Positions 52,406 through 63,866 of a DNA stretch of 64,000 bases are shown one piece after another. The notes beneath the pieces were generated by a model, which made no database searches, was not told the origin of the DNA, and saw nothing but the letters and a program-made list of their open reading frames with translations. This DNA comes from Giardia intestinalis (Eukaryota): NCBI GenBank assembly GCA_000002435.2, contig CM018793.1. One strand, 5' to 3'. Numbering within the stretch: position 1 is the stretch's first letter; the number at the start of each line of letters is the position of its first letter. Both the position numbers and the translations under genes were made by a program.

Positions 52406-53356
52406 CTAAAGTTGCATAAGTTGCTCCACCTCAGAGTTCTTGAAGCGCATGTAGTCAAGCATGTCTCTGCGGCTCATTTCCTGGTTCAGAACTTGCGGCT
52501 GCCCGGCACCTTTATCTTTCTTGAAGCCGGAATCGTACTTTCGAGGGCTTGTTTCTTTCTTCCCAACGGCCTTCGGTTTGATGCAGCAGATAATAACATT
52601 GATAAAGACGAGGATGAGAATAAAGATTGGTAGAGCGAACATTTGTGAATTGGTCTGCCCTGATTGGTGCACCCCCGAGATAATGTCCTGGAACGACTCT
52701 TGCTTCACCACTGTTCCATTATACTGTCTGAAGTAGCGAAGCGCTCCAGAAATCAAATTGATGCTTACATTTTGCGCACTATTGACCTGAAAGATCCCCG
52801 CGATGACAGGGTTGGCATACATGGACACCTCTACCGCCAGGAATATCTGCTCCTGTGGGTCCAGGACGGTCCACTCCTGGCACGATGGATCCGAGAGAAC
52901 CCAGCGCCTGCAAATTCTGATCTCCGTCACTTCACATCTCGAGACGTTGTGAGTGAATATGGCGCCGGCTATCTGGGGGAACACCCCGTTGTCAGGCAAA
53001 GATGAGCACACAGAGCTAGCCATATACGCCTCTAGAAGGGATTTGAGAGCATTTCCCCTCAGATAGGTGAGTGTAAATTGGTCTGTGGGAACCTTGTTGC
53101 CTACTATGGTCTGTAAGAGCATTGGGGCTGTGACCTTTCCAGCTGGGATATCACCCGTGAAGCTCAGTGACTGGGCCAATACCACTGTCACGCCACTGGC
53201 AAGCCGTACTCCATCCAGAGTTATTTCTGCTATCTTGCTGGGCTGCACCTGAGACATGTTCATGGCCTCTTGGAAGGTAACGTAAAATTGGTTATCAATG
53301 TTGCCTATTTGGGCTGTTATGGCAACAAAACTAGCCAGCCAGAGATACACGATCAT
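52406..53356 (-). CDS. Hypothetical type I membrane protein (signal peptide plus single C-terminal TM)
   Basis: N-terminal MIVYLWLASFVAITAQ. TM MFALPIFILILVFINVIICCI. Short cytoplasmic tail. Confidence 0.5.
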   Translation of the reverse strand: MIVYLWLASFVAITAQIGNIDNQFYVTFQEAMNMSQVQPSKIAEITLDGVRLASGVTVVLAQSLSFTGDIPAGKVTAPMLLQTIVGNKVPTDQFTLTYLRGNALKSLLEAYMASSVCSSLPDNGVFPQIAGAIFTHNVSRCEVTEIRICRRWVLSDPSCQEWTVLDPQEQIFLAVEVSMYANPVIAGIFQVNSAQNVSINLISGALRYFRQYNGTVVKQESFQDIISGVHQSGQTNSQMFALPIFILILVFINVIICCIKPKAVGKKETSPRKYDSGFKKDKGAGQPQVLNQEMSRRDMLDYMRFKNSEVEQLMQL

Positions 53357-54568: not shown

Positions 54569-56350
54569 TCATGAAATGTTGTACTTGGACGAGCTTAAAA
54601 CCAAGCCCAATACGCTAATTAGTGACGTGATGACGTTATATACCCCCAATTCCTGGATAAGAGAAAACTTAAACCTCGGGCTCCTACTTGCGGAAAAGGT
54701 GAGCATAGAGCAGAAGAAAAAGCGACCGAGTGACAGAAGGTATATGCTTATAGTCTTTTGGTCCATCAATAGGTGTGTTACCAATAGAATATGTGCACCT
54801 ATGAAGAGATTACTAACATAGCGCACTATTGAGGTGCCAGAGTCATTATAAATGCTATCTATCCACAACTTTTCTATCTGAGTGAGCCACTTATAGTTAA
54901 ATTGCTTGAAAATAGGTACAAGTCCGTTCAATTTAGCCATTACTGGATAGGACACTGCAGAACATGCAATGCACAGGAACACGACGTGCCGCTTGATGAG
55001 CACCTCCTTTTTGTAAGCGCGTTCAGCGTGTGCTCTTACTATTGCAGCCGTAAACAAATCCACAATGGAGATGCTTAGCGAGTTGAATGTGTCATACAAA
55101 AAGCGGAAAAGCGTTAATTGCATTATTTTAAGTGTAGAGCGTTCGGTGGCCATTATCTGTAGTCTAGAAAATACGCACATGGTGAGCAGGGGCACTAAGA
55201 TGCTGATTCGGTCCAGGTAGACAGGTATCCACGAAACCAGAAAGTGCTTCACGATCTCTGCAAGGCCTCTCTTGTCAGTCAGAAGAACTAGGAGGCCGTA
55301 GGCAAATGGAATGCACGAGACGGCAATAGGATCCCTCTTGTGGTTTGCCCATCCCATCTCTCGTGTTCTGCAGGCGACCAAGCAGGCGGCGATGACTATG
55401 AACATGCAGCTCGATAATAGAATGCTAAGGTGGTAGCTGTACAAATGCACCCTCATAACCAGTGATTTGGATGACTCCTTACTCACCTGTGGAATGTTGT
55501 GCGGGCTAAGTAGCGAAATAAGCTCCTGGATGGTCGTTGCAGTTGACACACTGTGTGGTTTAGTTGAATACAACATTCCCTCGTGGTAGAACTCACTGGT
55601 TGGGAGCTTGACAGATTCATTGAACTCTCCTGTCCAGTAGCTGGCCTTGCGGACCATCGGCATGCTCAGGTAGAAGATAGACACCATGAACACAAGCAAC
55701 TTAGTGAACTCTCTGGCAGCAAGTGCCCCTAGCAAGATGACTGATCTCTCCTCGGCCATGAGAATGTGTTGCATGCAGGTCGATATGGTAACGATGGTTG
55801 CATTGATCCAGGTGGAGACCGTGTAGGCACGCATGCACCAGGGCGCCAAGTCCCCAAGCAAGCGAGTGATGAGGGTGTTTTGAAGTAAGGTGCACAAGAA
55901 TGCTACTGAAAGGGTCATGAAAAGACTAAGCAATATGTATGCCCATGCGTAAGCAACAAAACTCAGTGCTTTATCCTGCTGAACCAGCTGTGTTAGGGAA
56001 ACGTGTGCAACGCGTGACATCGCATAAACGGGCGCCAATATGACAATCTCTTGAAAACAGTACAGGATGCCAAAAATATTGACCATTTGTATCCCCAAAT
56101 ATTGTACAAGTATTAAGAATATTAAGAAGTTGACAATGTGGTGAAGATAGTTTAACAAGATATACAGGCCCTCATAACACTTATTACTTACGTGAGAGCC
56201 ATGAGAAATCGTGTTAAAGAGTGCCGGGCGTTTGTACTGCCTCTCTGTGTCTTTTTGGACATTGGAGGCCTTAGAGTTAACCTCGAATAAATAGTATTCA
56301 TCTGCAACCGCGACAACGTACGACAAAAGAGTATTCATTGCAACGCTCAA
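54569..56350 (-). CDS. Hypothetical polytopic membrane protein (about 12 predicted TM segments)
   Basis: Repeated 20-aa hydrophobic stretches throughout, including LIFLILVQYLGIQMVNIFGILY, ILLSLFMTLSVAFLCTLL, LLVFMVSIFYLSM, MFIVIAACLVA and HILLVTHLLM. Confidence 0.55.
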   Translation of the reverse strand: MSVAMNTLLSYVVAVADEYYLFEVNSKASNVQKDTERQYKRPALFNTISHGSHVSNKCYEGLYILLNYLHHIVNFLIFLILVQYLGIQMVNIFGILYCFQEIVILAPVYAMSRVAHVSLTQLVQQDKALSFVAYAWAYILLSLFMTLSVAFLCTLLQNTLITRLLGDLAPWCMRAYTVSTWINATIVTISTCMQHILMAEERSVILLGALAAREFTKLLVFMVSIFYLSMPMVRKASYWTGEFNESVKLPTSEFYHEGMLYSTKPHSVSTATTIQELISLLSPHNIPQVSKESSKSLVMRVHLYSYHLSILLSSCMFIVIAACLVACRTREMGWANHKRDPIAVSCIPFAYGLLVLLTDKRGLAEIVKHFLVSWIPVYLDRISILVPLLTMCVFSRLQIMATERSTLKIMQLTLFRFLYDTFNSLSISIVDLFTAAIVRAHAERAYKKEVLIKRHVVFLCIACSAVSYPVMAKLNGLVPIFKQFNYKWLTQIEKLWIDSIYNDSGTSIVRYVSNLFIGAHILLVTHLLMDQKTISIYLLSLGRFFFCSMLTFSASRSPRFKFSLIQELGVYNVITSLISVLGLVLSSSKYNIS

Positions 56351-56662: not shown

Positions 56663-58336
56663 TCAATACTTAGGAGACCACTGGGTATCCCTCAGCTGGG
56701 CTAGCAGCTCAGTGTCAGAGGACGGAAGTATGCGACGGGACTGTCCCTGCTTTTCGGCGATACGGATAAGTCCAAGGGCGCACTGGCACGAAATCTCGCG
56801 GATTTCATCCAAATCTGGAAGAAGCTCGCCTCTGCGGAGCTTTTCTTCTGGGACCATTTGCGCTAGAGCCCCAGAAACCCCGGTAATCATCTCGTCAGTG
56901 ATCTTCTTTGCCCTACAGACATATGCCCCCAAGCCGATCCCTGGGAAGACATAGAAGTTGTTGCACTGCGCAGGCTGGATTGTGGTACCGTTCGGAAGTG
57001 TGAGGCTCGGCATAGGGCTGCCAGATGCATAGTATGCAGTGTTGTTGGTGTACTCCATGCACTCTGCAAAAGTGCACTCACACTTCTCAGTAGGGTTAGA
57101 AAGCGCAAGAACGATTGGCGGCTGGCCAGTTGGGAGGCCCTCACACATTGTCTCAAGAATCTCACGTGTGAAGGATTTCCCCACTGTCGAGAGCCCTAGA
57201 AGGCACGTGGGCTTGACTGCCTTGATGACACTCAGCAAAGTTGTGTGGCCCTTGATAGAAAGGTCGTGACGCACATACGGAAGCTTATGTCCGGGCATAG
57301 TCCCATTCACAAAGTCATCTCTATCTGCTGTCAGCAACCCCTGGGAATCTATCACGTAGAACTGCTTGCGGGCCTGTTCAAGCGTGTATCCCTCACTTAC
57401 CGAGAGAGACGCTATGTTATCTGCGACACCAATTCCGCCGGCTCCAGCACCGAACATAACATACACCTGTTCTGACGCTTTGGCTGTCCTATTCATCTTC
57501 AGAGAAATAGCACGGAGTCCTGCAGCAATGGTGGCTGCAGCAATACAGCCTGTGCCCTGAATATCGTCGTTGAACACAGGGCCAGCATCGCGGTGCTTCT
57601 TTAGCAGTGTAAAGGCAGTGTCATTAGAGAAATCTTCGAATTGGAAGATGCAGTCTGGCCACTTGGAGTGCACGGCCTCAATCGTCTCCTTGATTATCCC
57701 GTAGTACGTGTCGTCCTTGTTCCGCTTCTCTGGGATGCCGAGATAATGAGGATCTTCTCTGATCTTGTCCGTGTTACACCCAAAGTCAAAGGAAATCGGC
57801 AGTGTATGCTCCGGTGCAAATCCCCCGCCCAATGAATAGAGGGTAAGCTTCCCGACACAAATCTGGTGGCCACCCGTTCCCAAATCTCCTAACCCAAGAA
57901 TGCGTGTTCCATCGGTCGCAACGATGATGCGTGGGCTATAGGGCCATTGGTCAAAGATCTGCTTGACTTTGCCGAGATGGGTGCGGTTCAGATAGAAGCC
58001 GCGAGGATAGCCCTGCCAGAGAAGTGAGTAGTTGGAGCAGGCAGTGCCCACTGTAGGGGTGTAGACGATGGGGAGAACCTCCTTCAGATACTTCAAACAA
58101 AATCCAGAGAAAAGGGTTTCATTAACCTCCTGAAGACGGGTCAAGTAGAGCCACTTTTCGGTGGGCGTGGTGAGAACATCAAATTGTGCGCGGCATCTGC
58201 TGATTTGCTGCTCAATCGTCTCCACTCTTGCTGGAAGGCGCGCAACAATGTGGTGAGCCTCTCGCTCTGCAGCAGTGAAGGCAGTATCCTTATTGCAGTC
58301 CTTGTTGCGCAGCACAGTGGAAATAGTTATGGGCAT
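56663..58336 (-). CDS. Malic enzyme (NADP-dependent malate dehydrogenase, decarboxylating)
   Basis: Family motifs VYTPTVGTAC, GLGDLGTGG, FEDFSNDTAF and FNDDIQGTG. Ala/Gly-rich Rossmann segment. AGTGAAT motif about 22 nt downstream of the stop on the coding strand. Confidence 0.9.
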   Translation of the reverse strand: MPITISTVLRNKDCNKDTAFTAAEREAHHIVARLPARVETIEQQISRCRAQFDVLTTPTEKWLYLTRLQEVNETLFSGFCLKYLKEVLPIVYTPTVGTACSNYSLLWQGYPRGFYLNRTHLGKVKQIFDQWPYSPRIIVATDGTRILGLGDLGTGGHQICVGKLTLYSLGGGFAPEHTLPISFDFGCNTDKIREDPHYLGIPEKRNKDDTYYGIIKETIEAVHSKWPDCIFQFEDFSNDTAFTLLKKHRDAGPVFNDDIQGTGCIAAATIAAGLRAISLKMNRTAKASEQVYVMFGAGAGGIGVADNIASLSVSEGYTLEQARKQFYVIDSQGLLTADRDDFVNGTMPGHKLPYVRHDLSIKGHTTLLSVIKAVKPTCLLGLSTVGKSFTREILETMCEGLPTGQPPIVLALSNPTEKCECTFAECMEYTNNTAYYASGSPMPSLTLPNGTTIQPAQCNNFYVFPGIGLGAYVCRAKKITDEMITGVSGALAQMVPEEKLRRGELLPDLDEIREISCQCALGLIRIAEKQGQSRRILPSSDTELLAQLRDTQWSPKY

Positions 58337-58458: not shown

Positions 58459-59637
58459 TTATTTGACAAAGTAGAGAGAAAAGGCAACAACCAGACCCGC
58501 GAGAGAAAACGCGTTCCCTACGATGTGCACCACAATTTGGTCCGTGACGTCTACAGGCCATGTCCTGGGCCAGCTACGGAGAGCCAAAAACATCAGAAGC
58601 GATGCATACCCTTTACGAGACGTCACAAATGGGAAATTATTAGACAAAAAGTCCACGACTCGCTGGATGTTAAAAGCGTAGAGGAGGACAGAAATAAGGA
58701 TAAAGAGATAGAATAGCAGCTCAAACCAAAAGTTTGGTGAACGCCACCCGCCTCGGCCAACCAATATTATCAAAATGTAGGCAACCAGTGTGAATGTAGC
58801 GCCTAAAATCAGCAAAAATGCCACCATCTTGGAGATATCCTCTGGGTCTGTCAGTGGACCGTATTTAGAATCAATGTGGTAGGCCTTGATGCTTTTCCCC
58901 CCGGTTCTGCTACGCTCCGCGCGGTCACCCCTGCCCCTCTCGTTCTGCAGAGAGTCACGTCTCCTACGTCTGGCTCGGCTATCATAGATCTCCGAACCAG
59001 TATGGCTGCTGTAGCTATGTTCAGCACCGCTATCTGACCGTGACCTGGAGCTAGTGTTGCTGTGCTCACTCTCATCGACGCGCCGCCTTCTGTGGTCGGC
59101 CTCGCGCTCGTGAGATCGAGTATGATTTCTGTCACGACTGCGACTGCGTTCATAATCATAATCGTGGCCGTGGTCACGATGATAGCTTCGTTCACGGTCC
59201 CTGCCCCCACTTTTAGATCTATCTCTGCGTCTATCCTCATTGTGGCTGTATGCTTGGCTGTTCGCTAAGCTTCCCGAATGACTGCTATGACGAGAGCTGT
59301 GATGGCTCGAGTAAATGCTTCGCCCGTAATCGTCGTAATCTCTGTCCCTAGATTTTGATCTTGACCTAGATCTGCTGAGTGAGACAGAATCTGCGTGGTA
59401 GTCCCTGTGACGGTTGGAGCCATAACCATCGGGCATGCTATACTGCCCATGGCTATGGTGTGTACCTCTGTGGCCTGGGCTGGGCTCAAAGGAGCGATCG
59501 GCTGGGTAACGGGTGATCCCACTTGCGTGCCTCTGTCGCCCGGCTGTCTGCGATCTTCCAGGGTGCTCACTATAGAAGTCACTTGCCGTGTGCCTCCTGT
59601 CGTATGGACTCAAGGCCCACCGTCCGCTGCTTGACAT
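58459..59637 (-). CDS. Arg/Ser/Asp/His-rich (RS-like) protein fused to a C-terminal tetraspan membrane domain; hypothetical
   Basis: About 270 aa of low-complexity SRSRSRSKSRDRDYDD...RSRSRDRNHTRSHEREADHRRRR. Then four hydrophobic helices (MVAFLLILGATFTLVAYILIILV, FWFELLFYLFILISVLLYAF, YASLLMFLALRSW, IVVHIVGNAFSLAGLVVAFSLYFV). Confidence 0.5.
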   Translation of the reverse strand: MSSSGRWALSPYDRRHTASDFYSEHPGRSQTAGRQRHASGITRYPADRSFEPSPGHRGTHHSHGQYSMPDGYGSNRHRDYHADSVSLSRSRSRSKSRDRDYDDYGRSIYSSHHSSRHSSHSGSLANSQAYSHNEDRRRDRSKSGGRDRERSYHRDHGHDYDYERSRSRDRNHTRSHEREADHRRRRVDESEHSNTSSRSRSDSGAEHSYSSHTGSEIYDSRARRRRRDSLQNERGRGDRAERSRTGGKSIKAYHIDSKYGPLTDPEDISKMVAFLLILGATFTLVAYILIILVGRGGWRSPNFWFELLFYLFILISVLLYAFNIQRVVDFLSNNFPFVTSRKGYASLLMFLALRSWPRTWPVDVTDQIVVHIVGNAFSLAGLVVAFSLYFVK

Positions 59638-59743
59638 GAGGTCGGAAGTGTTTGCTATGCCCTACTAAACTTTTGGCCATTTTTATTAAAATATTAGACA
59701 TTTAGTATGTTATCCCACAAATTTTGGCAGTCCAAAATCTCCT

Positions 59744-60229
59744 ATGGCACGCAAACCAAACGCTCGATCTACAGAGCCTGACTTGACAGAAGAGCAGAAG
59801 CACGAGATTCGGGAGGCCTTCGACCTCTTCGACTCCGATGGCTCCGGCCGAATAGACGTCAAGGAGCTCAAAGTGGCGATGAGAGCCCTTGGATTTGAAC
59901 CCAAGCGGGAGGAGTTGAAGAGAATGATCGCAGAGGTGGATACGTCTGGCTCTGGGATGATTGACCTTAACGATTTCTTCAGGATAATGACTGCCAAGAT
60001 GGCGGAGCGCGACTCGCGAGAGGAGATCCTCAAGGCTTTCAGGCTTTTTGATGAGGACGACACCGGAAAGATCTCGTTCAAAAACCTGAAAAAGGTCGCC
60101 AAGGAGCTGGGAGAGAACCTTACTGACGAGGAGATCCAGGAAATGATCGACGAGGCAGATCGCGACGGCGACGGCGAGATCAACGAGGAGGAGTTCCTCA
60201 GGATAATGCGCCGCACGTCCCTCTATTAG
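59744..60229 (+). CDS. Centrin (caltractin), four EF-hands
   Basis: EF-hand loops [36 protein letters not shown] and [12 protein letters not shown]. Typical centrin N-terminal extension and C-terminal ...LY. Confidence 0.9.
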
Positions 60230-60253: not shown

Positions 60254-62572
60254 TTAGAGGGCTAACAGCTGCGAGACCTTCACCCGCTTTCCGCAGCAGT
60301 CGCACGGGCATGTCGGCTCGTCCTCCTCAGAGCGGAAGCACTCGCGGCTTGGTGGGCGCATCGCATCGAGTTTCTCCTGGAGCTTTCGCCTGTTCTTCTC
60401 TGCAATCTGCGCCTCCATGTCCTTGAGCATCTGCTCTCTCACAGCACGCTCGTGCTCTGCACGACATCGTCTCTCGTTTGCTGCGTCCTCTAAGTCTTTG
60501 AGGTATGCAGCCATGTCGTCAGCCTCCTCTTTGGCGCGCTGAAGCTTATCACGCATCCGCTTTGCCGTAGCATCACGCAGAGCTGTGTCTCTAACGTCCT
60601 CTGCTTCCCTGCGCTTACGGGCAAGGATAGCCTCGATGTCCTCCGGTGGAAGGGCCGAGCCCATGTCATAGTAGTCCGGTATGCGAGCATTAGCAAATTC
60701 GGGAAGGTTGTACTCAGCCAGCTGACGGTCCAGAAGCTCCTTCTGCAGTCTCTTCTTAGCCTCCTCAGAGGCCTTATCAAACTCTCGCCGCAGAGCCTCC
60801 TCTTCCTGAAGAGCCTTGGCATACTCGATGTCCTCAAGGCGGCTGCGCTTCTTCTCGCTTTCCTTTGCCTGCTGCTTAGCCGTGAAGTCTCTGATAAAGT
60901 CTTGCATGCTCTGCTCGGCAGCCTCGCGTCTCTTCCTCTCAAGCTCCGGATCGTTATCGAACAAAACAGGCATCGGCTGAATGCTTCCTTCAGAGAGGTT
61001 GTGGCCAGCACGGCGCCACCGCTTGTATGCATCGTAAAGCCTGTCTGCTTGATCTTTATTGTATTCGTAGTGCGATCTGTCGCGTTCGTAAGCAGCCCGC
61101 TTCCTTGCCTCCTCCTCGCGGCGCGCCTCTTCTGCTTGGCGCAAAGCCTGCTCTGTGAACTCCTTCTTTTCACGGGCAATACGCTCTGCGTTAGCCTTAC
61201 GCTTTGCCTCCATCTCCTTCTTGGCGGCACAACTAAAGCAAATCAGTCCACGGAACGGCCTTGTAACAGAAGCGGTCGATGGGGTGCCGTGGACGCGAGA
61301 ATTAATATATGCATCCCGCGCCTTGTCCAGCTCATCGTGGAGAATCCGCTCATATACCGGGCCATACTCTAAGTGTGACCGAACAGGTGGCTTGAATGTC
61401 TTACAAAAGTCACGCGTGAACTCTTCTGCCCTTGTGCGGAAAAGTTCCTCGGCAGTTACACCTAGTGGACGGGTCCCTGAGACGGAGAGAGGAGTCTTCA
61501 CCTCTGAGGCAACGAGCTGGGTTGCAGATCGCGAGAGGGGCTTCTGTGAAACCTCAGGCACAGAGTCAGACATTGCTGGTGGAAGCATGCCAGTGTTGTC
61601 AAGCGTGACCCCCAGAGCGGGTTCCTGCATCATCGTTTCTTCGTGGACGCCTTTAGAGACGGTGCTGGCCGGTCTATCGGTGGCTCCAAAACTTCGCACA
61701 GACATACCCATGTCGTTTCTATTGGACATCAGCATGAGGAGGGTGTTCTCATCAACGCGAGGAGTCCCCGGTCTTGAGCCTTGTCGTGACTGTCTTTGGG
61801 ATGGGGGCAAAGAATCAACCCGGAATGGTGTGTTAAGACTGAACGGTTTCTGCTGCTTGTTAACTGGTCTGACTGTGCTTTCGTGATTAAGAACGTTGCC
61901 AAGAGAACCCATGGACCCCGGGCGCCCGTTGGTCAGAACGTTGTTTGCCCGCGGAGTCATTGTACGGGAAAACGGTCCCTGTGCCGCGGCCTTTGCGGTT
62001 GCGTCGTATGGTCGTGTTGTTGCCATTGTCACGTCCATCGTCTCGCTGGAATCTTTCGGTTCCGGCCACGGATGGCGATAAGTCGGCTCTCTGTGAGGTA
62101 GGGATGGATGCATGTTGAACTTGTAACACCTGGTTCGGCGGTCAAAGACCAAATTCCCAAGGCCTGGGAGCTGCAGGTTCACCCGCTGTGCCCTCACGCG
62201 TATAGCGTCGCCTAGCTCCTGGAAAACAAACTGCAGAAGGGTCTTCGCATCATGGCGGGACGCTGTGGAGAAGTCCGTGTAGCACACTTGCCTTATTGCC
62301 GAAGGAACCATATGCTCGTCTGTCTCACAGCGAATGTTGTTATTTCGCACAAAGGTCTTAGTGAACCGTGCCGTTGGTTTACCTTTCGCATTGAATGAAA
62401 AGACGGCAAACGGCGGAATGTCTGTTGAGCAGTTATCGTTATAATTGTAAACAACTTGCGCACACAGGTCGCGCCAGACCTTGGTGATTTCGTCAGCTGT
62501 TGCGGTAATGAAAGGTTTCTGCAAAACCAGCGCAACCATGTCGCTATTACCATACTCCGTAACAGTCGTCAT
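60254..62572 (-). CDS. Hypothetical protein with C-terminal Glu/Arg-rich coiled coil; N-terminal region weakly CCDC81/HU-domain-like
   Basis: N-terminal IPPFAVFSF...LQLPGLGNLVF resembles the paired HU-like modules of CCDC81. About 250 aa of ER/K-rich helix. Terminal Cys cluster CPCDCCGKRVKV. Confidence 0.45.
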   Translation of the reverse strand: MTTVTEYGNSDMVALVLQKPFITATADEITKVWRDLCAQVVYNYNDNCSTDIPPFAVFSFNAKGKPTARFTKTFVRNNNIRCETDEHMVPSAIRQVCYTDFSTASRHDAKTLLQFVFQELGDAIRVRAQRVNLQLPGLGNLVFDRRTRCYKFNMHPSLPHREPTYRHPWPEPKDSSETMDVTMATTRPYDATAKAAAQGPFSRTMTPRANNVLTNGRPGSMGSLGNVLNHESTVRPVNKQQKPFSLNTPFRVDSLPPSQRQSRQGSRPGTPRVDENTLLMLMSNRNDMGMSVRSFGATDRPASTVSKGVHEETMMQEPALGVTLDNTGMLPPAMSDSVPEVSQKPLSRSATQLVASEVKTPLSVSGTRPLGVTAEELFRTRAEEFTRDFCKTFKPPVRSHLEYGPVYERILHDELDKARDAYINSRVHGTPSTASVTRPFRGLICFSCAAKKEMEAKRKANAERIAREKKEFTEQALRQAEEARREEEARKRAAYERDRSHYEYNKDQADRLYDAYKRWRRAGHNLSEGSIQPMPVLFDNDPELERKRREAAEQSMQDFIRDFTAKQQAKESEKKRSRLEDIEYAKALQEEEALRREFDKASEEAKKRLQKELLDRQLAEYNLPEFANARIPDYYDMGSALPPEDIEAILARKRREAEDVRDTALRDATAKRMRDKLQRAKEEADDMAAYLKDLEDAANERRCRAEHERAVREQMLKDMEAQIAEKNRRKLQEKLDAMRPPSRECFRSEEDEPTCPCDCCGKRVKVSQLLAL

Positions 62573-62776: not shown

Positions 62777-63442
62777 TTAGAAGATGCGGTGAGACGGGCC
62801 CATCGTGGACTTGATGTACACGGTCTTGATGTTCTGCCACCCCTTCTTGAGTTGCGTGGCGAGGAAGTTGAGGGTCGTCATGATATTCTGAGCTATCTCG
62901 GACGCCGGCATTTTGACGTTGCCGATGGGCCAGTTTAGTCCGACAGCTTTCTTGAACTGGACCTTGATGGTGGACTTGCACTCAAGAACCTTCAGCTCCA
63001 GGTCCTCATCGGGAGCAAGGGGCAGAGGGGTGCGGCCTGCCTTCGTGAACCCTGGGCCGGCGTAAACCGTGATCTGACGGATAAGAGACTTCGACGCAAG
63101 GAAGACGTCGTAGGACTTAGCGAACTTCTTGATCTGCTTGGCGTCCTTGTTGAACTGCTGGAGATGCTCTATCTCTACGTAGTTCAGGCCAAGCTTCTTG
63201 GCACGATCGGCATCGCGAGCATCGGCAATGACGCAGAGCTTCAGGTTCTGCTTGGCTATGTGGGGAAGGACGAGGGGAAGGTTGAAGCGTGGATCCTTCT
63301 TCGGGTCGTAGCCCTTGAGTCCGACCTGCAGCTCCACCGTTTCCAGAAACTTGCGAGGCTTCTCGTTGGTGGCGCGCTCGATGATCTCCGCGATGTGCTT
63401 GTTGAGGGCTTCGGGGTTAATTCGCTGCATCGCGAACCCCAT
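62777..63442 (-). CDS. RPL10A: 60S ribosomal protein L10a (uL1)
   Basis: Conserved uL1 blocks FLETVELQVGLKGYDPKKDPRF, LCVIADA, KKLGLNYVEIEHL and KKFAKSYDVFLAS.... Confidence 0.9.
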   Translation of the reverse strand: MGFAMQRINPEALNKHIAEIIERATNEKPRKFLETVELQVGLKGYDPKKDPRFNLPLVLPHIAKQNLKLCVIADARDADRAKKLGLNYVEIEHLQQFNKDAKQIKKFAKSYDVFLASKSLIRQITVYAGPGFTKAGRTPLPLAPDEDLELKVLECKSTIKVQFKKAVGLNWPIGNVKMPASEIAQNIMTTLNFLATQLKKGWQNIKTVYIKSTMGPSHRIF

Positions 63443-63569: not shown

Positions 63570-63866
63570 GTGGCCTCAAACAGTTCTCAAGCAACACAAA
63601 TGAGCAACCCACAAGTTTGCAGGGGATACACGGGAAGCTTCGTGGGGCACGTCTGCTCTTCGTGTGAAGGAAAATGTGTCTCCTGTGAAACCTCCGAACG
63701 TGGTGCTGCTTCCTGTCGGGTGGCTCAGATTTGTCGAGTGTGCTCCCAACGCCCCCGAAGAGCATGCGTTCTGTGTGGACTTCCCGGAACTAATCTCGCG
63801 TACTATTGCGAAAGGTGTGTCATGCTAGAAAAAGATCGTGATGGTTGTCCAGTGCGCATATCATGA
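63570..63866 (+). CDS. PHF5A: PHF5A/Rds3 (SF3b 14-kDa subunit, U2 snRNP splicing factor)
   Basis: Characteristic triple zinc-knot Cys spacing [11 protein letters not shown]...[11 protein letters not shown]...[29 protein letters not shown]. Compare human [64 protein letters not shown]. Confidence 0.85.
   Translation: [98 protein letters not shown]

Follow-up and report, generated by a model that had tools for sequence, protein, structure and literature searches.

GL50803_88888 of Giardia intestinalis: an Arg/Ser-rich tail, predicted to be disordered, ahead of a small hydrophobic membrane domain

What kind of protein carries a long arginine/serine (RS)-like low-complexity region in front of a membrane domain, and does it have anything to do with splicing? 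The question is raised by an open reading frame (ORF) at 58459..59637 (-) of a 64,000-nucleotide stretch of the Giardia intestinalis genome (contig CM018793.1, assembly GCA_000002435.2), which we refer to as the window. An earlier note on this DNA, made from the letters alone, had read the ORF as an RS-domain-like region fused to a tetraspan membrane domain, and had quoted from it two strings that are both indeed present (SRSRSRSKSRDRDYDD, residues 88-103, and RSRSRDRNHTRSHEREADHRRRR, residues 164-186). In the ORF list of the window, the frame runs from ATG to stop over 392 aa, and its product is identical to XP_001707578 / KAE8305846 / UniProt A8BE33, that is, to GL50803_88888 of G. intestinalis WB, which is thus already annotated, as a "hypothetical protein" only. 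The FASTA header in a published data set places the gene on chromosome 5, 3784068-3785246(-) (PMC11527388 S2 Table). We find a genuine, expressed gene whose slowly evolving C-terminal ~120 aa (residues 271-392) form a hydrophobic anchor, and whose tail is RS-like in composition without reaching the thresholds that define an RS domain.

Gene model, expression and phylogenetic range

The case for a genuine gene, which the earlier note had presumed, is built on the identity to A8BE33, syntenic orthologs, frame-specific selection and expression data. The note had also considered that the ORF might be the antisense shadow of another gene. Over 58459..59637, ORFs on the plus strand reach at most 89 aa, and a six-frame comparison of the tail with two orthologs singled out the annotated frame, which has zero stops and a ratio of nonsynonymous to synonymous differences (pN/pS) of 0.24-0.26. 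Four of the five other frames show pN/pS of 1.2-1.5, while the codon-matched antisense frame has a pN/pS of 0.38-0.39 yet contains 24-25 stops. Against the same two orthologs, synonymous sites are saturated (pS 0.73-0.86), and pN is 0.19-0.21 in the tail versus 0.11-0.12 in the C-terminal domain. The start ATG is kept in three lineages, and five lineages keep the frame of the tail open, in-frame indels notwithstanding. Because only the annotated frame is both open and low in pN/pS, antisense-shadow and alternative-frame readings are ruled out.

The gene is expressed at both the mRNA and protein levels. In axenic culture, its mRNA was measured at 47.5, 53.0 and 266.9 transcripts per million at 48, 60 and 96 h, which corresponds to a 5.3-fold rise (Ansell et al. 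2015, PMC4670223 S2 Table). The protein (45.2 kDa) was identified by 5 unique peptides with 19.9% coverage in the whole-cell proteome of the GiMlf study, where its label-free quantification value was 3.76-fold higher in the GiMlf knockout (-log p 2.17, with two of three valid knockout values), and for which an HHpred search by the authors of that study returned nothing (PMC11527388 S2 Table). In the same knockout line, protein synthesis and ribosome biogenesis are up (PMC11527388). The identification by mass spectrometry (MS) amounts to 78 residues in five peptides, which would be hard to obtain from the C-terminal domain since the latter yields a single ordinary soluble tryptic peptide, and the tail is therefore very probably translated. 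We disregarded the "oligo-alginate lyase" proposed by I-TASSER as a structural homolog (PMC4670223 S2 Table), which is not credible for a disordered-plus-membrane protein.

Public collections also contain shorter versions of the protein (58459..58827 (-); P0004, P0005, P0025, P0026, P0028 and P0042), namely, fragments of 115-128 aa starting at internal ATG/TTG codons and one frameshifted version of 246 aa. These short versions are artifacts of prokaryote-style gene calling on Giardia reads, and homology searches can return them instead of full-length GL50803_88888.

Assemblage B (GL50581_4230) and two other lineages of the G. intestinalis complex have orthologs of 387, 394 and 403 aa, flanked like the WB gene by centrin and malic enzyme. 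The gene is thus syntenic in four lineages of the complex, to which is added a positional ortholog in one distant Giardia lineage. In the latter, a membrane-domain profile found a 123-aa fragment (P0028) encoded on a contig with malic enzyme directly downstream and an open R/S-rich frame upstream. The full-length distant ortholog of 361 aa (P0029), from the same cluster as P0028, is encoded on a 3.8-kb contig with the same malic-enzyme neighbor. Between this lineage and WB, malic enzyme is 70% identical and the membrane domain 31% identical. There is no centrin gene within the 679 bp upstream of the distant ortholog (L005:1-679), and synteny has apparently been kept on the malic-enzyme side but not on the other.

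Orthologs beyond Giardia, which the earlier note had proposed to look for in other diplomonads, did not appear in our searches. When the profile of the transmembrane (TM) domain was scanned with HMMER against 1.84 billion representative proteins, only Giardia proteins were retrieved, plus one spurious bacterial protein (P0027) that we rejected as a homolog since it is repetitive and its score is the sum of 11 weak repeat matches. Word-indexed searches, whether started from the full protein, its C-terminal domain or the distant ortholog, returned Giardia sequences only. Pfam gave no match at E up to 1 for full-length GL50803_88888 and none at E up to 0.1 for orthologs P0029 and P0044; over the full protein, the C-terminal domain and the orthologs, there were at most scattered, nonrecurrent matches at E above 0.02. 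Searches of the PDB by sequence, with a single sequence as well as a profile, produced no match. GL50803_88888 would therefore be a Giardia-restricted protein, no homolog having been found outside the genus.

The N-terminal tail

As the earlier note had noticed, the N-terminal 260-270 residues are Arg/Ser/Asp/His-rich and of low complexity. Residues 1-270 contain 20.0% Ser, 18.1% Arg, 9.6% Asp, 8.9% His, 7.8% Gly and 6.3% Tyr, with hydrophobic residues making up only 7%. This bias is far above the local background, since Ser, Arg, Asp and His together reach 70% over 100 aa of the tail while all other ORFs of at least 150 aa in the window stay at or below 41%. No tandem repeat was found in the DNA. 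With 54 Arg+Lys in 270 residues, the tail has a net charge of about +15, and in WB its grand average of hydropathy (GRAVY) is -1.87, its charged fraction 0.35 and its net charge per residue +0.056. The values overall span 0.33-0.38 for charged fraction and +0.05 to +0.07 for net charge per residue. Charges are well mixed, charge patterning (kappa) being no different from that of shuffled sequence. AlphaFold2 assigns no secondary structure to the tail, with a predicted local distance difference test (pLDDT) score of about 33, and residues 1-260 are thus predicted to be disordered.

How the tail evolves is best seen at two depths. Within the G. intestinalis complex, it changes fast and with in-frame indels, yet the four-lineage alignment contains conserved islands. 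These are W.LSPY..(R)HT (residues 7-17), FYSEHPGRSQTAGRQRHASG.TRYP (residues 21-45, with the RxRxxS site RQRHAS), RDYDDYGR, SGSLANSQ.YSH and an RRRR(R) cluster. In addition, HADSVSLSRSRSR (residues 81-93) is identical in three lineages while the fourth, P0044, has HADAVSL, and the SLSRSRSR part of the RS run SLSRSRSRSKSR (residues 86-97) is kept in all four. A last island, PLTDP(E/D).IS, directly precedes TM1; its PLTDP part is invariant in the four lineages, P0044 having PLTDPD and the others PLTDPE, and is not seen in the distant ortholog. In the distant lineage, the alignment of the tail to that of WB is no better than with shuffled sequences, 33 of 200 shuffles reaching the observed score, and DSVSL..SRSR is the sole recognizable motif. 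The composition, by contrast, is kept. The four close lineages have 17.5-18.3% Arg, about 20% Ser and a net charge of +14 to +15, and the distant tail has 21.7% Arg, 17.0% Ser, 10.2% Asp, 5.5% His, 5.5% Tyr and a net charge of +17, which gives a range over the five orthologs of ~18-22% Arg, 17-20% Ser, ~15% Asp+Glu, 5.5-9.2% His and ~6% Tyr. Composition retained in a sequence that can no longer be aligned points to selection that acts on bulk tail properties and a few short motifs rather than on the sequence, a pattern that is the signature of a functional disordered region.

Is this an RS domain, as the earlier note suggested from the composition? By the criterion used in SR-protein nomenclature, an RS domain spans at least 50 aa with an RS/SR content above 40%. 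In the tail, RS/SR dipeptides account for only 12.5-16% of the residues, with a maximum of 20-28% in any 50 aa, and the longest alternating run, SRSRSR(SR), has 6-8 residues and reads SRSRSRS in the window protein. A second definition requires that Ser and Arg make up at least 0.6 of 60 aa with an S:R ratio near 1, while the arginine-rich mixed-charge domains (R-MCDs) of nuclear-speckle proteins are defined by a charged fraction of at least 0.7 in 60 aa, with positive and negative residues at 1:0.7-1.3 (Greig et al., bioRxiv 10.1101/771592). In the five orthologs, Ser+Arg reaches at most 0.47-0.57 per 60 aa and the maximum charged fraction is 0.52-0.63, both being below these thresholds. The highest charged fraction of the window protein, 0.58 with 19 positive and 16 negative residues, is found in the region of residues 134-186. 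The charge ratio itself is that of R-MCDs in four of the five best 60-aa segments (19:16, 18:13, 17:15 and 16:15), and narrowly off in P0044 (23:15). If all Ser are counted as negative, the charged fraction rises to 0.68-0.75 per 60 aa, a value that applies only if every Ser is phosphorylated; counting phosphoserines in this way defines the "phospho-tunable mixed-charge" regime of Greig et al. (bioRxiv 10.1101/771592). The tail thus shares with the RS domains of SR proteins and with R-MCDs its predicted disorder, its richness in Arg, its RS/RD/RE dipeptides, its well-mixed charges and a net charge that Ser phosphorylation could tune, but differs from them in being below threshold and, as regards SR proteins, in being attached to a membrane anchor and lacking an RNA-recognition motif (RRM), none of which was found in GL50803_88888 by Pfam. 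In short, the tail is RS-like and mixed-charge-like but subthreshold, diluted by His, Tyr and Gly.

The splicing angle fares no better. The earlier note had pointed to a nearby PHF5A gene, and such a neighbor does exist, as a PHF5/Rds3-like zinc-finger ORF (Table 1). We nevertheless rejected its proximity as functional evidence because operons are absent from this eukaryote and three unrelated genes intervene, namely, those for centrin, a CCDC81-like protein and ribosomal protein L1; at the distant locus, malic enzyme is the only neighbor seen. GL50803_88888 is not a splicing factor in any demonstrable sense, and nothing connects it with splicing. Phosphorylation by SRPK/CLK, together with localization to nuclear speckles, is a mark of SR proteins. 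Giardia splices very rarely and has only a handful of introns, yet retains a single SRPK (GL50803_17335) and a single CLK (GL50803_92741) (PMC3218828), which makes the conserved SLSRSRSR a reasonable candidate substrate of these kinases. A compositional parallel is offered by the SR/SH-rich domain of the PIM-1L kinase, which mixes SR/RS with SH/HS dipeptides and which is reported to bind SRPK1 (PMC11809128). GL50803_88888 has SSHHSSRHSSHSGS beside its RS run, a likeness in composition only and not homology.

The C-terminal membrane domain and the surrounding locus

The "four clear TM helices" of the earlier note turn out to be a small polytopic domain in which not all helices are equally clear. 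Kyte-Doolittle and Hessa-type sums show two strong segments, TM1 and TM2, a moderate one, TM4, and a "TM3" of just 13 hydrophobic residues (Table 1). TM2 contains a conserved polar residue, E306, which is replaced by Q in the distant ortholog. TM3 does form a helix in the AlphaFold2 model (residues 341-354), but as a full membrane span it is doubtful. It is followed by the most conserved element of the family, WPRTWPxDxT, which is invariant in all orthologs including that of the distant lineage, while G374-N375..S378-L379 are invariant in TM4. AlphaFold2 places helices at all four TM positions with pLDDT values of 40-60, the pLDDT being 38.9 for the full-length protein and 56.9 for the C-terminal domain, both too poor for assigning a fold.

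The label "tetraspan" was a guess at topology, which the weakness of TM3 and the profile searches do not bear out. We compared the domain with small four-helix families (tetraspanin, claudin/PMP22, MARVEL and LHFPL). In six members of the GL50803_88888 family, Pfam gave no match to tetraspanins, claudins or MARVEL proteins at E values up to 10. Tetraspanins carry a CCG motif in their large second extracellular loop; in the GL50803_88888 family, TM3 and TM4 are connected by ~12 residues, none of which is Cys.

Which side of the membrane does the tail face? The overall positive-inside balance sets the 54 Arg+Lys of the tail and 3 in loop 2 against 2 and 2 in loops 1 and 3, which together with the lack of a signal peptide favors a cytosolic N terminus, an orientation that we consider likely. 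Locally, TM1 suggests the reverse. The 15 residues before it are net acidic (PLTDPEDIS) and the loop after it is basic (GRGGWR; 58732..58755 (-)), and the local charge-difference rule, reportedly due to Hartmann et al. in 1989, would thus place the tail on the opposite side. In the distant ortholog, this local difference is reversed. PLTDPEDIS (58831..58857) also contains DxE, which resembles a di-acidic ER-export signal.

The features of the gene and its neighbors are collected in Table 1.

Table 1. Features of GL50803_88888 and neighboring genes in the window
Feature	Position	Strand	Basis
Complete coding sequence of GL50803_88888, 392 aa plus stop	58459..59637	-	Exact match, syntenic orthologs, frame-specific purifying selection, published mRNA and peptides
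Arg/Ser/Asp/His/Tyr-rich tail, predicted disordered, residues 1-260	58858..59637	-	Composition; no secondary structure in AlphaFold2; composition kept in five orthologs
Best-kept tail island, residues 21-49, FYSEHPGRSQTAGRQRHASGITRYPADRS, with RxRxxS basophilic-kinase-type site	59491..59577	-	Nearly invariant in four G. intestinalis-complex lineages; motif scan
RS core, residues 81-103, HADSVSLSRSRSRSKSRDRDYDD, with longest alternating RS run of the protein	59329..59397	-	Alignment
Arg-rich mixed-charge core, residues 134-186, RD/RE/RS dipeptides with His and Tyr, ending in RRRR(R)	59080..59238	-	Alignment, charge scan
Acidic juxtamembrane motif PLTDPEDIS, residues 261-269	58831..58857	-	Alignment
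TM1, residues 271-294	58756..58827	-	Kyte-Doolittle maximum 2.76; Hessa-scale sum -4.0 kcal/mol; helix in both AlphaFold2 models
TM2, residues 303-323	58669..58731	-	Kyte-Doolittle maximum 2.17; Hessa-scale sum -0.8 kcal/mol
"TM3," short hydrophobic segment, residues 344-356	58570..58608	-	13-mer; Hessa-scale sum +2.8 kcal/mol; below Kyte-Doolittle threshold of 1.6
Family signature WPRTWPVDVT, residues 356-365	58543..58572	-	Alignment
TM4, residues 367-391	58465..58539	-	Kyte-Doolittle maximum 2.12; Hessa-scale sum +2.1 kcal/mol (moderate)
Malic enzyme	56663..58336	-	Neighbor of GL50803_88888
Centrin	59744..60229	+	Neighbor of GL50803_88888
772-aa protein, subthreshold CCDC81 matches	60254..62572	-	Neighbor of GL50803_88888
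Ribosomal protein L1 (ORF)	62777..63442		Ribosomal_L1 match at syntenic position in L001-L003
PHF5/Rds3-like zinc-finger protein	63570..63866	+	PF03660, E 1.9e-19

Several side observations concern this neighborhood. In WB, an out-of-frame ATG lies at 59680-59678 (-), 43 nt ahead of the GL50803_88888 start, and is not kept in two other lineages. A AAAAGTTTA element ~35-45 nt upstream of the start is kept in all three lineages compared and may belong to a divergent promoter shared with centrin (intergenic region 59638..59743). The 772-aa protein has its CCDC81 HU-domain matches at the N terminus (E 5e-4 and 2e-3) and a long, E/R/K-rich C-terminal half that ends in a CPCDCCGKR cysteine cluster; it is 92-93% identical between assemblages, with a pN of 0.03-0.05. 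The PHF5-like ORF begins at GTG as listed, and its true start is probably an internal ATG (MSNPQVC...). Farther away, the 593-aa ORF at 54569..56350 (-), listed from a TTG, is very hydrophobic and polytopic-looking, matches no Pfam family at E up to 0.1, and represents a further uncharacterized Giardia membrane protein. The 316-aa ORF at 52406..53356 (-) shows a weak match to the C-terminal domain of 5'-nucleotidases (PF02872, E 1e-5, barely over the gathering score), is hydrophobic over a segment close to its C terminus, and may be a membrane-anchored nucleotidase remnant.

A tentative model and its alternatives

What could such a protein do? The reading that we favor, a tentative one that we would call quite possible rather than probable, is that of an endomembrane protein peculiar to this lineage. 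Its tail would face the cytosol and form an electrostatic binding platform tunable by phosphorylation, and the protein is induced in late culture and in a proteostasis mutant. GL50803_88888 would be composed of two modules. The C-terminal anchor, with its three to four helices and its WPRTWPxDxT signature, would fix the protein in the endomembrane, most plausibly in the endoplasmic reticulum (ER)/nuclear-envelope system. The disordered ~260-aa tail, most likely facing the cytosol or nucleoplasm, would act as a multivalent platform for RNA and/or acidic or RS-like partners, with Arg and Tyr as contact residues. Phosphorylation of Ser in SLSRSRSR, the RS run, and in RxRxxS/RxxS sites would set its net charge, the candidate enzymes being the single SRPK, the single CLK and AGC kinases, and the abundance of the protein would rise in late or stressed cultures. 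ER-anchored RNA- and ribosome-binding proteins such as p180/RRBP1, LRRC59 and MTDH/AEG-1 similarly combine a membrane anchor with a long, highly charged and disordered cytosolic region. They differ in having a single TM helix and in being Lys-rich or built of repeats, and there is no homology with the Giardia protein.

A number of points weigh against this model. The composition of the tail stays below both the RS-domain and the R-MCD thresholds, the local charge difference at TM1 favors the opposite orientation, and the predicted structure of the membrane domain is of low confidence, with uninformative fold matches. Both induction results come from bulk omics, with the knockout proteome value calculated on two of three valid replicates. 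Moreover, of the six supplementary data sets that we checked (proteomic, interactome and transcriptome), four do not contain GL50803_88888. In the searchable literature, we found no paper naming it in the main text and no localization, topology, phosphorylation or interaction results, which tells also against the first of the alternatives that follow.

That alternative arises from the nearest analog we could identify by architecture, the lamin B receptor (LBR). An RS-like stretch fused to a membrane domain, which the earlier note had found unusual, is not unprecedented. LBR is an integral membrane protein that resides in the inner nuclear membrane (INM), and its N-terminal RS run, which SRPK1 and Akt phosphorylate, mediates binding to chromatin and proteins (PMC5617974, PMC4841541). 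Like LBR, GL50803_88888 has a hydrophilic N-terminal tail with a short RS run (SLSRSRSRSKSR) and an RxRxxS site ahead of a polytopic membrane domain, the related DSVSL..SRSR being found in the distant ortholog. GL50803_88888 differs in that it lacks the Tudor and ERG4/ERG24 sterol-reductase domains (no Pfam and no PDB sequence matches), has 3-4 helices where LBR has 8, and carries a far longer tail in which Asp, His and Tyr are abundant as well. Its anchor is an orphan whose combination with the tail appears to have arisen independently in Giardia. With an architecture that has a known analog and a tail of a known type (RS/R-MCD-like), nothing mechanistically unprecedented is in evidence.

Could GL50803_88888 then be an LBR-like tether of the INM, with its anchor in the nuclear envelope and its tail in the nucleoplasm, binding chromatin or RNA under SRPK control? 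Such a tether would replace the lamina and INM proteins missing in Giardia and explain why SRPK has been retained. The parallel in architecture, the retention of both SRPK and CLK, and a conserved RRRR(R) cluster that could act as a nuclear localization signal all speak for it, as does the fact that nuclear-envelope proteins are largely lineage-specific (PMC7889174). We nonetheless regard it as unlikely, given that there is no homology to LBR, and that the basic cluster is only ~45-85 residues from TM1 and is not kept in the distant ortholog. Furthermore, basic R-rich tails are equally typical of ER-bound RNA- and ribosome-binding proteins. The fuller version of this idea, in which GL50803_88888 is the functional LBR counterpart of Giardia, a nuclear-envelope/ER tether whose tail is the main physiological substrate of SRPK/CLK and through which kinase signaling controls, under stress, how chromatin or RNA is attached to the membrane, is a degree less likely still.

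The His and Asp content of the tail suggests another role, improbable in our view, in which it would buffer or hand over Zn2+, Ni2+ or Fe2+ at the membrane, or change its charge with pH. His makes up 5.5-9.2% of all ortholog tails, along with ~10% Asp, there are local clusters (THHSHG, SSHHSSRHSSHS and HRDHGHDYDYE), and within the G. intestinalis complex His is kept without exception at eight positions. Most clusters, however, are not kept in position, HRDHGHDYDYE becoming YSHTRDYDYE or HSHSRSRDYDHE, and it is Arg and Ser that dominate the tail, not His. ZIP/CDF-type proteins would be expected to show positionally conserved His clusters together with a metal-transporter domain, but Pfam finds no transporter-type domain here and the anchor is almost devoid of polar intramembrane residues.

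If TM1 followed its local charge difference, the N terminus would be translocated, and the tail would be a luminal or extracellular polycationic domain, binding for example host mucus, glycosaminoglycans or cyst-wall material. An unfolded tail could in principle be translocated. With 54 Arg+Lys in 270 residues and no signal peptide, such translocation is unlikely, the local charge difference is reversed in the distant ortholog, the tail has no Cys and no conserved N-glycosylation sequons, and the protein was not found in the supplements of secretory/endocytic organelle proteomes. We therefore give this topology little credence.

Of similarly slight probability is a role as stress protectant, in the manner of hydrophilins or late embryogenesis abundant (LEA) proteins, whereby the Gly-containing hydrophilic tail would guard the membrane or proteins in stationary phase or under proteotoxic stress. 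Hydrophilins are defined over the whole protein, by more than 6% Gly and a mean hydrophilicity index greater than 1. The tail by itself is hydrophilic enough (GRAVY -1.87, 7.8% Gly), and both the 5.3-fold rise of the mRNA at 96 h and the 3.76-fold rise of the protein in a proteostasis mutant (the GiMlf knockout) would fit. The whole protein, at GRAVY -0.95 and 7.1% Gly, falls slightly short, however, no LEA or dehydrin motifs or Pfam matches were found, and the induction data are unspecific.

Finally, a misannotation in which only a 122-aa membrane protein from Met271 is real, as several public gene calls holding just the C-terminal 115-128 aa might suggest, is hardly tenable given that those calls start at internal TTG/ATG codons chosen by prokaryote-style callers, that the tail frame is open in five lineages with a pN/pS of about 0.25 where other frames fail, and that five peptides covering 78 residues were detected, and the same holds for a true splicing factor, given the membrane anchor, the missing RRM and the meaningless linkage to PHF5A.

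As of now, GL50803_88888 is one among many uncharacterized Giardia orphans, a parasite-specific and expressed membrane protein with no host homolog. Its tail nevertheless offers a clean case of a disordered region that has kept its composition and net charge, rather than its sequence, over deep divergence. Should the favored mechanism prove true, the protein would provide SRPK and CLK with a concrete candidate substrate in an organism with only a handful of introns (PMC3218828), and would represent an independently evolved, membrane-anchored and phosphorylation-tunable RS-like disordered domain, of which metazoan LBR is so far the only well-studied case.

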